In this document: positions 28,133-38,723 of the stretch, piece after piece
Layout of the letters: the number at the start of each line of letters is the position of its first letter
How positions within the stretch are numbered: the first letter of the stretch is position 1
Source: a virus
Taxonomy: Duplodnaviria; Caudoviricetes
Reading direction: 5' to 3' (one strand)
Length of the DNA stretch: 64,000 nucleotides
Virus record (IMG/VR): IMGVR_UViG_3300043579_000163
Span: 8,819-72,818 of that record
Program-made: the position numbers and the translations under genes
The notes under the pieces: generated by a model
Database searches by the model: none
Told to the model about the DNA's origin: nothing
The model's input: only the letters and a program-made list of their open reading frames with translations

Positions 28133-28687
28133 ATGGACAACGAGTTCAGTAAGGCCCTGGTGCCAACCGAATGCATCTCTTACCCTCGGTCGGGCCATCA
28201 TGCGCTGGTGGACCTACTGCGTGCCTACTTTGGCGAGGGATTCGTTTACGGCGAGATTTACCGGGAGCCAACCGCAGTTCTGGGCAGCCTCTTTCCCCCG
28301 GTGAACTACCAGAAAAATCACGACTTCGACCTGCTGACCCCCGTGGACGCCGCGCGCAACTATCTCGTGCAGGTCCGCAACCCGCTCGAGTCCATCGAGA
28401 GCTGGGAGACCTTTGACCGGCGCGTGGGCCACACCCCAGACACCGCCGAGGCCCGGCTCGATTTCTGGAACGCCTTCGTGAAGAAGTGGGTCTTCGGGGA
28501 GGTCCCGAACCGACTGGTGGTCTGGTATGAGGACCTTGTGGGCGCCCCCGTGGAGACCTGCACCGCGGTGATTCAGTTCTTGACCCGCACCCAGAACGTC
28601 GACATGGACCTTCTCGCGAGGTCCCTGGCCCTCCGTCCCCTGGCTCGCCGCCGCCCGCACGTTCCCCGCCGCTACCTGAAGGCCTGA
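28133..28687 (+). CDS. Sulfotransferase (PAPS-dependent fold)
   Basis: 5'-PSB SYPRSG, 3'-PB VRNPLES..S, YEDL. Confidence 0.8.
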   Translation: MDNEFSKALVPTECISYPRSGHHALVDLLRAYFGEGFVYGEIYREPTAVLGSLFPPVNYQKNHDFDLLTPVDAARNYLVQVRNPLESIESWETFDRRVGHTPDTAEARLDFWNAFVKKWVFGEVPNRLVVWYEDLVGAPVETCTAVIQFLTRTQNVDMDLLARSLALRPLARRRPHVPRRYLKA

Positions 28688-28697
28688 TTTTCCCAGG

Positions 28698-28727
28698 TTG
28701 ACATTCGCCGACCCGTGGGACTTCTTG
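28698..28727 (+). promoter_or_regulatory. Class II promoter candidate
   Basis: TTGACA-N16-ACTTCTTG. Confidence 0.5.
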
Positions 28728-28735
28728 AGGCAGTT

Positions 28736-28924
28736 ATGCCAAAAGAACAGACCGCGTTTGACCCCCGCTCCTTCCAGGACGAGGAAAAATACCGTGCCAA
28801 GGAGATGGGCGCTGGCGCATCCAGCAACCCTTCCGGCCCCGACCCATCCACCAAGGCCCCTGGCAAGTTCAACGTGGATTACGACACTGCGAAGCAGGGC
28901 TTCGTGACTAATACCAAGGTTTAA
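28736..28924 (+). CDS. Small hypothetical protein (from MPKEQ)
   Basis: 62 aa ORF downstream of promoter. Confidence 0.6.
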   Translation: MPKEQTAFDPRSFQDEEKYRAKEMGAGASSNPSGPDPSTKAPGKFNVDYDTAKQGFVTNTKV

Positions 28925-28933
28925 GCCCGTCCC

Positions 28934-35476: not shown

Positions 35477-35817
35477 TTATCCTCACCCCGAAGACTGTCG
35501 AGTGGACCTCTGAAGACGCCGCGCGTCTGAAAGATTTCCTCAACTCCCCAACGGGGAGCCGCGTGTTGCAGTTCCTCGCAATGGGCTCGCCAGACCTGTT
35601 GGACGGGGCGCACAAAAACAAAACGCTCGTGGCCTCCGGCGCGCTCGCTGGATATCAGGACGCCATCAACACGATTTTCAAGTTGACCTACGAGAACCCG
35701 AACGCGCCCGTGGTCCCCGACGTGGTCTCCGAAAATTACAAATCCCTGGATGATGACTCCGCCTGGGTTGAGGAAGACAAGACAGTTGACAAATCGAAGA
35801 ATCCCACAACCTCTTGA
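35473..35817 (+). CDS. Hypothetical head-associated protein
   Basis: 114 aa, ATGA coupling to portal. Confidence 0.65.
   Translation: MIILTPKTVEWTSEDAARLKDFLNSPTGSRVLQFLAMGSPDLLDGAHKNKTLVASGALAGYQDAINTIFKLTYENPNAPVVPDVVSENYKSLDDDSAWVEEDKTVDKSKNPTTS
35786..35816 (+). promoter_or_regulatory. Class II promoter for scaffold operon
   Basis: TTGACA-N17-ACCTCTTG; 23/26 identical to 39201-39226. Confidence 0.6.
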
Positions 35818-35842
35818 ATGCAGTTAAACTACGAACCGTGCT

Positions 35843-37108
35843 ATGCCCGACACCAATCCACCTGAACTCTCGACTATCCCTCCGGGGGTAAGTATCACCA
35901 ACGACCCCAAGGACGCCGTCGACACAGGCGCAGCTTTGGACGCTCTTTTCAAACCAATCGACGAACCCGCGGCCACGCCGCCCGCGGTGTCTGACCCGGC
36001 TGTCCCGGCTGCCCCGGCTGCCCCGGTGCTGCCCGGATTGCCGACGGCTTCTATTCCCCCGGTCACACCGCCCATCACCCCCGAGCCCACCAAGGACGAG
36101 TTTGACGCTGTCCAGCTCCCGCCTCACACCAAGTCGGAGGTGTCGCAGTCGTTCGACAATCTCAAGAAGGCCTCCCGAGACCGCGTCGCCGCGGTCCAAA
36201 AGGAGCGCGAGGAACTCGCTGCCAAGGTCAAGGAATTGGAGACCCGCCCCGCCGTTGACCCAAAGCTCGAAGCCGAGTTGAAAGAGCTTCGTGAGTTTCG
36301 CCAGAAGATGGATGTGGAGGCCGACCCGACCTTCAAGGAATACATCGAGGAGAGCAAGGCCAACGAGGATTCTATCTTGACCAAGTTGAAAGAGGCCGGT
36401 GCATCAGAGGACGCCCTCACGAAGATGAAAGCCATCGGGTCTAAGGACCTCGATTGGGAAATCATCCTGGAAAAATTGCCGCCGGTCACCCGCCGTTATG
36501 TTGAGAACAAGCTGGCCGTAAACGAGGACCTGCACGACCAGCGCACTCGCGCCCTAGAGAACGCGAAGAAGAACGCCTCAGAATTTCTGGCCGACCGGGA
36601 GAAGCAAAGCACACAGAGCGAGCTGGCTCATTACGCCAAGTCGGAGGAGCATTTCAACAAGGTGTCCGTCCAGCTTCCATGGTTCAAGCTCCAAAAGGCG
36701 GAGGCCACAGCGACGGCCGAGCAGAAAGCCACCATCGAAGCGGAGAACAAGTTCTACCTCGCGACGCACGACCAAGTCAAGAAGATGCTGGCGGACCCAT
36801 CTCCCGAAATGCGCTCCATCGCTGCTCTGGGATACGCTCAGATGCTGCGACTTCAAGCCGAGATTCCCGCGCTTCAAGCAGAGCACGAGGCCGAGAAGAA
36901 GGGGCTCAGTGAGAAAATCACGAAGCTCGAGGCCCAGCTCAAGGAGAAGGAGGAATTCATCGCCCGCGTGAAGGGTGCATCGCGCACCAGCCTGCGGGAC
37001 GGAAGTGCCCCCTCCAATCCCGGCGCCGCAGCCAGCCAGCCAACTTTCGGTGAACACGGCAACGTCGCAATCGACCGCCTGCGCGCCGAACAACTGGCCG
37101 GCTCATGA
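35843..37108 (+). CDS. Scaffolding protein
   Basis: Pro-rich N-terminus, long E/K/A coiled coil, position between portal and capsid. Confidence 0.7.
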   Translation: MPDTNPPELSTIPPGVSITNDPKDAVDTGAALDALFKPIDEPAATPPAVSDPAVPAAPAAPVLPGLPTASIPPVTPPITPEPTKDEFDAVQLPPHTKSEVSQSFDNLKKASRDRVAAVQKEREELAAKVKELETRPAVDPKLEAELKELREFRQKMDVEADPTFKEYIEESKANEDSILTKLKEAGASEDALTKMKAIGSKDLDWEIILEKLPPVTRRYVENKLAVNEDLHDQRTRALENAKKNASEFLADREKQSTQSELAHYAKSEEHFNKVSVQLPWFKLQKAEATATAEQKATIEAENKFYLATHDQVKKMLADPSPEMRSIAALGYAQMLRLQAEIPALQAEHEAEKKGLSEKITKLEAQLKEKEEFIARVKGASRTSLRDGSAPSNPGAAASQPTFGEHGNVAIDRLRAEQLAGS

Positions 37109-37935
37109 ACACCACCCTCCACGAGGGGAAACAGGTTGAAATTCTCTTGCCCTGGTATCGGGAGGTTGCTCCGCAAGTTGCGTTCAGCGTCATGCGGCTC
37201 ATGGACAAGGGGCGCATTGGCGTCCGCGCGCGCTGGGGAGACGCAGCCGTGTGGCACGTTCGCAACGTCCTGGCGGAAGAGTTTCTTCGCTCTGGTGTTG
37301 AGTGGTCTTTTTGGGTGGATGGTGATGAAATCCTTCCTCATGGGGATGCGAAGTTTTTTAATGCTCTCACTCAGCAGCGCCTTCCTGATGCTTTTGCCGG
37401 GCTTAATGTCATTGACCGACTATTGTCTCATGGCAAAACTCTCGTTGGTGGTGTGTATTGGGGGCGTCACCCAAACAGTAAGCCGATTTATGCGGAGGCG
37501 ATGACCTCCGAACGCGAGGACGCTTACGCGCGCAAGGGTCCGTATGACCTCATCAAACCGACTGCATGGGTTGGCTTCGGTGCCGTGCTTGTTCATCGCT
37601 CTGTTTTCCTCGACATCGAGAAGCGCTATCCTCACCTGGGACGAAAGGCGGATGGCACGGGATGCAATTTTTTCTCACCGAACGAGCAGGACATTCGCCG
37701 CAGCTTCGACGGGTTCGGGTCCATCCTGAAGGAGAGCCTCGACGCGAACACCAAGCTGGCGAAGCTTCAGGCTCACTACGAAAACACGGTGCGCCAAGCG
37801 TCGCGTCTGCCGGTTGGAGCTGGTGAGGACGTCTCGTTCTGCCAGCGCGCGGCGGACTGCGGTCACGTTCCGCACGTCGACATGGCGCTCTACTGCGGGC
37901 ATCTCGGGGACCGCTGCTACGGAAGGTTGACGTGA
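37105..37935 (+). CDS. GT2-like glycosyltransferase
   Basis: VRN.LA, FWVDGD, VGFGAVLV, GEDVSFC, CGH. Confidence 0.8.
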   Translation: MNTTLHEGKQVEILLPWYREVAPQVAFSVMRLMDKGRIGVRARWGDAAVWHVRNVLAEEFLRSGVEWSFWVDGDEILPHGDAKFFNALTQQRLPDAFAGLNVIDRLLSHGKTLVGGVYWGRHPNSKPIYAEAMTSEREDAYARKGPYDLIKPTAWVGFGAVLVHRSVFLDIEKRYPHLGRKADGTGCNFFSPNEQDIRRSFDGFGSILKESLDANTKLAKLQAHYENTVRQASRLPVGAGEDVSFCQRAADCGHVPHVDMALYCGHLGDRCYGRLT

Positions 37936-38723
37936 ACAAAATCCTGCTCGCCCTCCAGTTCTGGGAAAACGACAAGGCTGACGCCATGCGGATGGCGAGG
38001 TTCGTCGCGGATTTGGAGCCGCAGCACTGCGCTCAGGCGGACTTCCTTTTTGCTGCGCGCTTCGATTGCAAGCTTGACCCCGCGACAGTGGCCCACGTAT
38101 CGAAGCGATTCAACACCTTCACCTTCATCAACCGGCATCGGCGCGCTGAGGGCTGGCCCTTCGGGTGCAACGAGCTGTTTTTCGGCACGGTGGACCACGT
38201 CTACACCCAGATTGAAGCCAAGAGGATGCCCCAATACAAGGCCATCTTCACCTTCGAAGCGGACGGCAACCCCATGTCGCCCGACTGGATTGCCCGACTG
38301 CACTCCGAGTGGGACCGGCTCCACGCCAAGGGCGCGAACATGGTGGGGGCGATGATTCCCCCGGGACCGCCGGAAACGGACGGCAAGCACATCAATGGCA
38401 ACTGTCTCGTCTCGGCGGAAAAAGAATACCTGCACTGGATTGCCCGCAAAATCGGCGGGTGCCGGCCAACCGCAGGGTGGGATTGGGTCCTGGCCCCGCG
38501 GTTCAAGGAGCAGGGCTGGGCGAACTGCCCGGGGATTCGAAGCTTCTGGCGCTCACCGGCCATGCCCCCCGAGGTGTTCCAACGTCTTCGGAGAGAAGGG
38601 GTTTTCTTTGTTCACGGGGTCAAGGACGATTCAATCATCCGGCATGTTCGGGAGAGCCTGACCCCTCCACCCCTCCCCGCGTCGGAGTCGGTCCTTTCCA
38701 AGGCCCTCAATTTCCTGGGTTGA
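37932..38723 (+). CDS. Putative GT-A fold glycosyltransferase
   Basis: IFTFEAD, HINGN, WDW, C-terminal FVHGVKD. Confidence 0.6.
   Translation: MNKILLALQFWENDKADAMRMARFVADLEPQHCAQADFLFAARFDCKLDPATVAHVSKRFNTFTFINRHRRAEGWPFGCNELFFGTVDHVYTQIEAKRMPQYKAIFTFEADGNPMSPDWIARLHSEWDRLHAKGANMVGAMIPPGPPETDGKHINGNCLVSAEKEYLHWIARKIGGCRPTAGWDWVLAPRFKEQGWANCPGIRSFWRSPAMPPEVFQRLRREGVFFVHGVKDDSIIRHVRESLTPPPLPASESVLSKALNFLG

Follow-up and report, generated by a model that had tools for sequence, protein, structure and literature searches.

In this study, we analysed a window of 64,000 nucleotides (positions 8,819 to 72,818 of the IMG/VR virus record IMGVR_UViG_3300043579_000163, a member of the Caudoviricetes), in which five genes for glycan-related enzymes lie within the head module, three of them immediately before the gene for the large terminase subunit (TerL) and two between the putative scaffold and major capsid genes. 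The central one, GT1, encodes a glycosyltransferase of the GT-A fold and proved to be a core gene of a whole lineage of uncultured phages, in which it is followed by a slot of exchangeable sugar-tailoring genes. That all five genes encode soluble cytoplasmic enzymes of one glycan-building set belonging to the head module is the reading we favour, with about an even chance of being right. A first-pass annotation of this DNA had proposed that the genes form a virion sulfo-glycosylation pathway. The open reading frames (ORFs) that it named are all present on the plus strand where it placed them, four of its five enzyme assignments held up and the five families recur as a synteny-linked set, whereas the GT-A fold of the fifth enzyme, GTa, was not established. 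The five genes are as follows.

28133..28687, plus strand: short sulfotransferase (ST) of the type that uses 3'-phosphoadenosine-5'-phosphosulfate (PAPS), 184 aa (relatives' profile and motifs)
28934..29905, plus strand: GDP-mannose-3,5-epimerase (GME)-like short-chain dehydrogenase/reductase (SDR), with Cys/His and not Cys/Lys (Pfam Epimerase, GME structures in PDB)
29887..30615, plus strand: GTa, probable glycosyltransferase (invariant DxD motif, weak GT2 match, neighbourhood)
37105..37935, plus strand: GT1, core GT-A glycosyltransferase of the lineage (AlphaFold model, invariant motifs)
37932..38723, plus strand: GT2, second GT-A glycosyltransferase (AlphaFold model, invariant motifs)

The strongest evidence comes from related loci. 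These were collected in two sets of 80, one through GT1 and the other, as a guard against circular reasoning, through the putative capsid protein; counts were taken from the 61 capsid-selected loci that had at least 6 kb upstream. A scaffold gene was present in all of them and GT1 stood directly after it in 61/61; such a constant position between scaffold and capsid genes is not a matter of chance. GT2 was found in 56 of these loci, the SDR in 36, GTa in 33 and the short ST in 4. Throughout the relatives the block TerL-g192-portal-g114-scaffold-GT1-GT2-[slot]-capsid is conserved, and GT1 and GT2 (median identity 44% and 43%) diverge about as much as TerL (49%) and the portal protein (48%).

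In contrast to this fixed block, the slot before the capsid gene holds 0-5 genes that change between loci. Clustering and Pfam scans of its contents revealed four families shared with the window (GT2, GTa, SDR and ST), a polysaccharide pyruvyl transferase, a Glyco_tranf_2_4 enzyme, several unknowns and a wandering Endonuclease VII gene, as well as a second sulfotransferase unrelated to ST (Sulfotransfer_3, 2e-28) and a GDP-mannose 4,6-dehydratase (GMD; 2.5e-130) paired with a fucose-synthase-like SDR. Judged by these gene families, negative charge and 6-deoxy sugars are the recurrent predicted themes of the cassettes, as in the following examples.

L034:7206-8156: Sulfotransfer_3 enzyme
L054:11496-12515: pyruvyl transferase
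L039:1778-3696: GMD and fucose-synthase-like pair

The families of the window are found together in two arrangements. ST, SDR and GTa precede TerL in the window and in two relatives (L003 and L007), and seven others (L015, L019-L021, L024, L029 and L040) read GT1-GT2-ST-GTa-SDR-capsid. Immediately behind GT1-GT2, the slot starts with ST and GTa in at least nine loci. In both arrangements the genes stay within the head module, and nothing else speaks as strongly for a joint function of the five families. In addition, distant relatives share 59-64% identity with the window in ST but only 44-50% in their core genes, and the cassette seems, on these identities, to move between members of the lineage.

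The sequences of GT1 and GT2 gave no match in Pfam, PHROG, NCBIfam or PDB, and a GT1 profile searched against PDB also found nothing. Each has about 200 unannotated homologues on contigs of about 70 kb, and the source names of 10 homologues were empty or 'hypothetical protein'. Structure prediction, on the other hand, bore out the GT-A folds that had been claimed for both. The AlphaFold model of GT1 (predicted local distance difference test, pLDDT, 88.5; alignment of 25 sequences) matched A197 of Sulfolobus turreted icosahedral virus (STIV) best, with a VIA Z of 18.4 and a root-mean-square deviation of 2.2 over 169 residues, followed by LH3 (Z 17.3), COLGALT1 (15.8) and Mnn9 (15.3); Mimivirus R699, SpsA and TarP were matched as well. 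Among viral models, Foldseek retrieved uncultured-phage glycosyltransferases (2.6e-16) and giant-virus PLOD-like proteins. The LH3 and COLGALT1 matches were considered as a specific pointer to collagen-like acceptors and were demoted to a lead, since they reflect general GT-A similarity. The GT2 model (pLDDT 94.3; alignment of 26 sequences) had 422 PDB matches at E<=1e-3, and all those listed were glycosyltransferases. Its best VIA Z was 16.5 to the CHSY3-CHPF complex (9q8z chain B), with B3GalT6 at 15.8, C1GalT1 at 15.5 and XylT1 at 13.9, and the Z range of 13-16.5 also covers LARGE1, GnT-I, Fringe and glycogenin.

Conservation of the DxD-type motif was read in 25-30 relatives each for GT1, GT2 and GTa. 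Invariant residues are D72-G-D74, E241-D242 and the C-terminal H266 in GT1, and E109-A-D111 and the C-terminal H228 in GT2; by sequence, this pattern is that of active metal-dependent GT-A enzymes. Searches by tblastn of 50,697 phage records returned no match for GT2 or ST and a single weak one for GT1, in an uncultured phage; no actinobacteriophage was matched. An unrelated 39-kb uncultured phage (MW202496.1; L164, 1-3011) has annotated scaffold and capsid genes, a small ORF and then a putative glycosyltransferase, which shares 27% identity with GT1 (E 4e-4).

GTa had been called a GT-A protein in the first-pass annotation. Neither its sequence nor its profile matched Pfam, PDB or PHROG, and its 149 homologues lie on contigs of about 70 kb. 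It keeps an invariant D92-S-D94 (within N-D-S-D-S, about 90 residues from the N-terminus) and H214, which fits the assignment. By hhalign its C-terminal G..x.H-S-x-K region pairs weakly with the H-G-V-K region near the C-terminus of GT2 (E 6e-4 to 9e-4, probability 22-28%), which is compatible with the GT-A fold but does not establish it. No significant relation appeared by hhalign among the GT1, GT2 and GTa families. This silence means little for GTa, because GT1 and GT2, both proven GT-A proteins, are also silent towards each other. Glycos_transf_2 occurs in 13% of the members of an Atlas neighbour cluster of GTa, and in 24 loci GTa shares the slot ahead of the capsid gene with GT1, GT2 and SDR.

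The epimerase is an extended SDR (Pfam Epimerase 5e-42), and its best solved relatives are GME structures (8sg0, 1e-52, 182 bits; 2c59, 2e-50, 175 bits), with GDP-fucose synthase far below (1e-22, 84 bits); its score against the NCBIfam Fcl model was 114 bits, where the cut-off is 500. The GDP-sugar epimerase named in the first-pass annotation is thus confirmed as a GME-like enzyme. Near its N-terminus it carries G-A-S-G-F-V-G (GxxGxxG), its Y-G-W-E-K aligns with Y-G-L-E-K of 2c59, and the Cys of S-S-S-C-V-Y-P is kept in the same alignment. The acid/base pair of plant GME is Cys145/Lys217 (Arabidopsis numbering), and GDP-fucose synthase uses a Cys/His pair. The phage protein has GGREH where 2c59 has GGREK, which places a His at Lys217, as also in the close relatives L004-L006. 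We therefore file it as GME-like and not as GME; it is most likely a 3,5-epimerase acting on a GDP-hexose. No GMD, sugar-1-phosphate nucleotidyltransferase (NTP_transferase) or adenosine-5'-phosphosulfate (APS) kinase was found in the phage genome, so that GDP-mannose and PAPS must come from the host.

ST alone matched no Pfam or PHROG model and, in PDB, only weakly the glycopeptide sulfotransferase Teg12 (E 0.03). An exhaustive search found 647 relatives, mostly of 170-230 residues, and a profile of 40 of them matched more than 50 solved sulfotransferases, SULT1C3 best at 2e-10 and SULT1B1, SULT2A1, Teg12/14, StaL, CurM-ST and TPST among the others. Sulfotransfer_1 was recognized in 26 of these 40 relatives and Sulfotransfer_3 in 22. 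Across them P18, R19, G21, H63, D64 and R82 are invariant and K61 and S90 nearly so. The 5'-phosphosulfate loop S-Y-P-R-S-G-H-H aligns with P-K-S-G-T-T of SULT1C3 and P-K-A-G-N-T of Teg12; K61-N-H63-D64 aligns with K-T-H of SULT1C3, in which the His after the Lys, equivalent to H63, is the established catalytic base of sulfotransferases; and the 3'-phosphate motif R82-N-P-L-E-S-I-E-S90 aligns with R-N-P-K-D-x-x-V-S. The three hallmark motifs thus align colinearly and in order, in agreement with the sulfotransferase originally proposed here. The protein ends where the alignment reaches residue 250 of SULT1C3, and the C-terminal GxxGxxK region is absent or replaced. By its motifs, ST is a genuine but short member of the sulfotransferase superfamily; the last third of the cytosolic SULTs, on the C-terminal side, appears to be missing. 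A 62-codon ORF (28736-28924, plus strand) with a Pro/Ser/Gly-rich product occupies the interval from ST to the epimerase.

The five genes are tightly built into a head operon, whose other members are listed below.

30617..32506, plus strand: TerL, large terminase subunit (tblastn to annotated terminases and phrog_2)
33341..35476, plus strand: putative portal, 711 aa (size and place after TerL; conserved in all relatives)
35843..37108, plus strand: putative scaffold, 421 aa, Ala/Glu/Lys-rich (position and composition; in 61/61 loci)
38759..39205, plus strand: Endonuclease VII/HNH homing-type endonuclease (Pfam Endonuclease_7 2.8e-20; between GT2 and capsid)
39432..40712, plus strand: putative major capsid, 426 aa (order, size, conservation, Atlas neighbours)

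From the GME-like gene through GT2 the genes are packed head to tail. The GME-like gene and GTa overlap by 19 nt, a one-base spacer separates the GTa stop from the TerL start and likewise TerL from the next gene, and portal and g114 overlap in ATGA. The scaffold stop and the GT1 start also overlap in ATGA, and GT1 and GT2 in GTGA, as expected from the earlier proposal that the glycosyltransferases are translationally coupled to the scaffold. TerL was supported by weak tblastn matches to annotated terminases (1e-5 to 8e-4) and by its orthologues, which match phrog_2 at 1.2e-8. The portal, scaffold and capsid proteins matched no family in Pfam, PHROG or NCBIfam and no usable sequence in PDB, where a capsid profile also found nothing; direct searches with the TerL sequence were equally fruitless. 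No Pfam family was detected in 23 orthologues of the capsid protein, nor in those of TerL and the portal protein. The scaffold and major capsid labels given previously are thus without a family match and are kept on order, size and conservation, together with an Atlas lead, the capsid neighbours including Phage_capsid_3 and Phage_capsid_4 clusters (0.96-0.97). The capsid is the most conserved protein of the block, with a median identity of 71% in distant relatives, compared with 32-49% for its neighbours.

Homologues of the endonuclease at 38759-39205 occur at differing places in at least 10 related loci, a behaviour typical of homing endonucleases; it is an insertion in the slot and stands outside the glycan pathway. 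A second gene of this kind (Endonuclease VII/HNH type, Pfam 1.2e-22) lies at 7670-8914 on the minus strand. Between the endonuclease and the putative capsid gene is a non-coding stretch of 226 nt (39206-39431) in which C-A-C-G-A / C-T-C-G-T-G words form the centre of several short inverted repeats. A late promoter or a leader may lie here, and a sigma-70 scan of its plus strand returned nothing. As read from the sequence, a GC-rich hairpin and then a T-run lie 3' of the putative capsid gene.

Two kinds of candidate acceptors are encoded close to the enzymes. The C-terminal tail of the putative capsid protein (about 40641-40709) is Ser-rich and carries the motif S-S-[FY]-[ST]-G-x-D-x-[FY]-x-x-[VLI]-G-V-C, which is kept across the lineage and flanked by conserved Cys. 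Sulfation of a tyrosine in this tail was considered and rejected, as the aromatic position that follows the Ser run is Phe in the ST-carrying phage of the window and Tyr in some relatives without ST. Downstream are two genes for collagen-like proteins.

42766..43905, plus strand: collagen-like g379, G-A-T triplets (Pfam Collagen 1.6e-6; candidate acceptor or fibre)
44146..45594, plus strand: collagen-like g482, G-T-N triplets (Pfam Collagen 5e-9; candidate acceptor or fibre)

Runs of at least five GXY triplets are present in 74 of 76 g379 orthologues, where Thr is the commonest residue at Y (27%), and GXY runs are present in 28 of 29 g482 orthologues, where Thr takes 36% of the Y positions. 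In BclA of the Bacillus exosporium, Thr residues within G-P-T repeats are O-glycosylated, a parallel that may serve as a lead for the collagen-like proteins. The N-terminus of g379 (42766-42900) is very Cys-rich, with about 11 Cys in the first 45 residues and C-x-x-C-like spacing, and together with the three conserved Cys of the putative capsid tail this is unusual for proteins assembled in the cytoplasm. Between the capsid and collagen-like genes, a 181-aa protein (42221-42766, plus strand) with a lipoprotein-type signal (L-C-G-C) and hydrophobic segments is encoded, which is kept in many relatives at a median identity of 57%.

Starting from the folds and families found (GTa excepted), the gene order, the coupling and the conservation, we infer the acceptor, the sugar and the sulfation of the glycan in the following way. 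GT1 and usually GT2 are core genes, whose products would be synthesized alongside the scaffold and capsid proteins, and ST, the GME-like epimerase and GTa would form an exchangeable tailoring set. Late in infection, the epimerase might act on GDP-mannose of the host and yield a GDP-L-hexose donor such as GDP-L-galactose or GDP-L-gulose. GT1, GT2 and GTa could assemble a short glycan, O-linked to a virion protein that is exposed at the surface, with the Ser-rich capsid tail and the Thr-rich collagen-like proteins just downstream as candidates. ST would then add sulfate from host PAPS to give an anionic coat. That virion proteins are the acceptor is a proposition we hold to be roughly evenly balanced, and a sulfated particle is appreciably less probable. 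Also tentative is the broader proposal that the lineage obligatorily glycosylates its capsid tail or collagen-like head fibres by means of a core GT-A enzyme and that swappable cassettes for sulfate (two ST families) or pyruvate diversify the coat in an O-antigen-like manner. The first-pass annotation had further suggested that the coat could imitate sulfated polysaccharides to which the host binds, and this gained no support; the capsid gene was met only in mis-binned contigs of metagenome-assembled genomes (MAGs).

Several observations weigh against a single virion-directed pathway. In the window, 6.5 kb of head genes separate the ST-GME-GTa trio from GT1 and GT2, and only about a fifth of the related loci have any sulfotransferase. 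Small molecules and glycopeptides are the substrates of the sulfotransferases of known structure closest to ST, whose own acceptor is not readable from its sequence. For GTa, the GT-A fold is a candidate assignment. The portal, scaffold and capsid proteins owe their putative identities to position, order and size, and the Ser-rich capsid tail with its flanking conserved Cys could have a structural role instead of being a glycosylation site. In addition, no RNA-labelled run was present among the listed sequencing runs that hold DNA of this phage.

The best surviving alternative, which we consider unlikely though still worth weighing, is that the enzymes act as auxiliary metabolic genes that remodel glycans of the host envelope (lipopolysaccharide, capsule or exopolysaccharide), which could block superinfection or keep progeny off cell debris. 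Bacterial polysaccharide clusters typically contain GDP-sugar enzymes, pyruvyl transferases and sulfotransferases, such genes have been read as host-surface modifiers in cyanophage papers (PMC12801897), and the lipoprotein-like membrane protein at 42221-42766 sits in the structural block. Nevertheless, membrane-spanning hydrophobic stretches are missing from all five enzymes, no match to Bac_transf or another lipid-carrier priming phosphoglycosyl transferase was found in the genome, so that the set would work independently of a lipid carrier, and GT1 is fixed between scaffold and capsid in all 61 loci and coupled to the scaffold. For these three reasons a host polysaccharide is disfavoured as the substrate. 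Envelope remodelling would also fit poorly with the late co-expression alongside head proteins that the gene arrangement predicts, and no tyrosine integrase was found in the genome, though a small serine recombinase is present.

Somewhat less probable again is a division into two unrelated systems, in which GT1 and GT2 modify a virion protein while ST, GME and GTa form a mobile cassette directed at something else, for example a host glycan or a small molecule, which would leave the virion glycan unsulfated. The distance of the trio from GT1 and GT2, directly after an island of RNA genes, would suit this division, as would the rarity of ST in the lineage, the small-molecule substrates of its solved relatives and its higher identity than that of the core genes in distant relatives, which suggests lateral exchange. 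On the other hand, the loci in which ST and GTa follow GT1-GT2 immediately, the independent recruitment of an unrelated sulfotransferase family and a pyruvyl transferase to the same slot, and the fact that GTa abuts TerL, so that the trio joins the head operon, all speak for one set.

It is very improbable that the GT-A fold of GT1, and perhaps that of GT2, serves head assembly or structure without any catalysis, the other enzymes being accessory. GT1 is as universal as a structural gene, and its match to LH3 covers chain residues 293-536, which we take to be the non-catalytic accessory domain; however, D72-x-D74, E241-D242 and H266 of GT1 and E109-x-D111 and H228 of GT2 are invariant at 40-50% identity. 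We know of no sulfated or pyruvylated DNA glycans, and hypermodification of phage DNA with sugars around packaging, as in T-even and other phages, is the least credible explanation: DNA-glycosylating phage glycosyltransferases are well known (Pyle 2024, in the words of PMC12619734 that cite it) and three of the genes adjoin TerL, but the genome has no thymidylate-synthase-like hydroxymethylase for a 5-hydroxymethyl base and the genes lie in the head module, not in the replication module.

The virus record, of which the window is the greater part, has 72,818 bases and is rated complete by CheckV. The left part of the window encodes replication genes on the minus strand, including a family A polymerase and a PD-(D/E)XK nuclease, and small RNA genes grouped in an island (about 27.0-28.1 kb) directly precede the plus-strand structural block. 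The serine recombinase (24838-25662, plus strand; 274 aa) combines a Resolvase N-terminal domain (2.6e-23) with a partial Recombinase domain; in a genome that lacks a tyrosine integrase, lysogeny or DNA inversion may be possible. Further downstream, a 2294-aa protein (55248-62132, plus strand) matches a single family, DUF7178, close to its C-terminus (6e-8); it may act as a tape-measure or be a giant protein that is injected.

Near-identical DNA was detected by a sequencing-run search in metagenomes of soil, sediment and freshwater sediment, and the head genes had no close relative among the 50,697 GenBank phage records (tblastn). The lineage is one of widespread, uncultured phages of about 70-75 kb from soil and sediment. 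In MAGs, the capsid gene was found in three contigs only, of unrelated phyla and labelled Peribacteraceae, Rhodoferax and Nitrospirota; a host assignment from these was rejected, because the pattern looks like binning noise.

A glycosyltransferase is thus conserved like portal and terminase across about 190 soil and sediment viral contigs, beside fast-changing sugar-tailoring genes. This suggests that particles throughout an uncultured lineage have, as a basic component, a glycan coat that varies and is often anionic. If true, it would bear on how phages avoid adsorption to debris, clay and host decoys and on the tuning of receptor-binding fibres, and it would be of use in phage engineering, as a few small soluble enzymes could suffice to reprogramme the coat. 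Obligatory glycosylation with swappable sulfate or pyruvate cassettes, if it holds, would mean that a sulfated phage particle is seen for the first time and that phages have an equivalent of serotype variation. The reading is testable without the host, since Escherichia coli makes both GDP-mannose and PAPS.

To our knowledge, self-glycosylation of phage particles has been demonstrated only in a few mycobacteriophages, in which it alters antibody recognition. Glycosyltransferases in the head module are known from Cluster O mycobacteriophages, where none of the head-block enzymes was found in virions and a modification of the capsid was proposed (PMC4351075). As in those phages (the Cluster O Corndog type, Che8 and others), several glycosyltransferase genes and a tailoring enzyme lie inside the head-gene block. 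The differences are that the glycosyltransferases stand here between scaffold and capsid and there between portal and protease, and that the tailoring enzymes are here an epimerase and a sulfotransferase (a pyruvyl transferase in relatives) and there an O-methyltransferase. In addition, tblastn of the same 50,697 records detected no sequence relation of the mycobacteriophage system to GT1, GT2 or ST. Unlike the mycobacteriophage type, GT1 is a strict core gene of its lineage, and the present system is known from genes alone. In mycobacteriophages the glycans are placed on the C-termini of capsid and tail-tube subunits, as far as PMC12619734 reports the work of Freeman 2023, and here the capsid C-terminus is conserved and Ser-rich.

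More distant parallels are found in other viruses. STIV, an archaeal virus with a glycosylated major capsid protein, has the essential GT-A protein A197 (PDB 2c0n; PMC10551542), which is the best structural match of GT1 and, like it, a minimal soluble GT-A protein, with a proposed cytoplasmic glycosylation of the capsid protein. The two share only 16% sequence identity, belong to viruses of different realms and capsid folds, and the acceptor of A197 is also unproven. Giant viruses and chloroviruses encode, for their own particles, nucleotide-sugar enzymes together with GT-A proteins, a combination of genes also present here, and GT1 and GT2 match Mimivirus R699, PLOD-like glycosyltransferase domains of Megavirus proteins and a protein of Paramecium bursaria chlorella virus 1 (PBCV-1), a similarity at the level of the fold only. 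Collagen-like proteins are encoded nearby in these systems too, which differ in belonging to viruses of eukaryotic hosts and in having far larger gene sets; a lysyl hydroxylase was not found in the phage, in which no search aimed at it was made. Compared with SULT1/2, Teg12/Teg14 and StaL, ST is alike in its loop (PRSG versus PKSG), the histidine of K-x-H and the R...S motif, and differs in its length (184 versus about 290 residues) and in falling below Pfam thresholds. A full-text literature search found no description of a sulfotransferase acting on a phage particle and no described phage pathway that combines all these components, which agrees with what the first-pass annotation had stated. 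Self-glycosylation of phages is known already; what is notable here is the GT-A gene that belongs to the core, the O-antigen-like variable slot and the repeated recruitment of enzymes that add charge.

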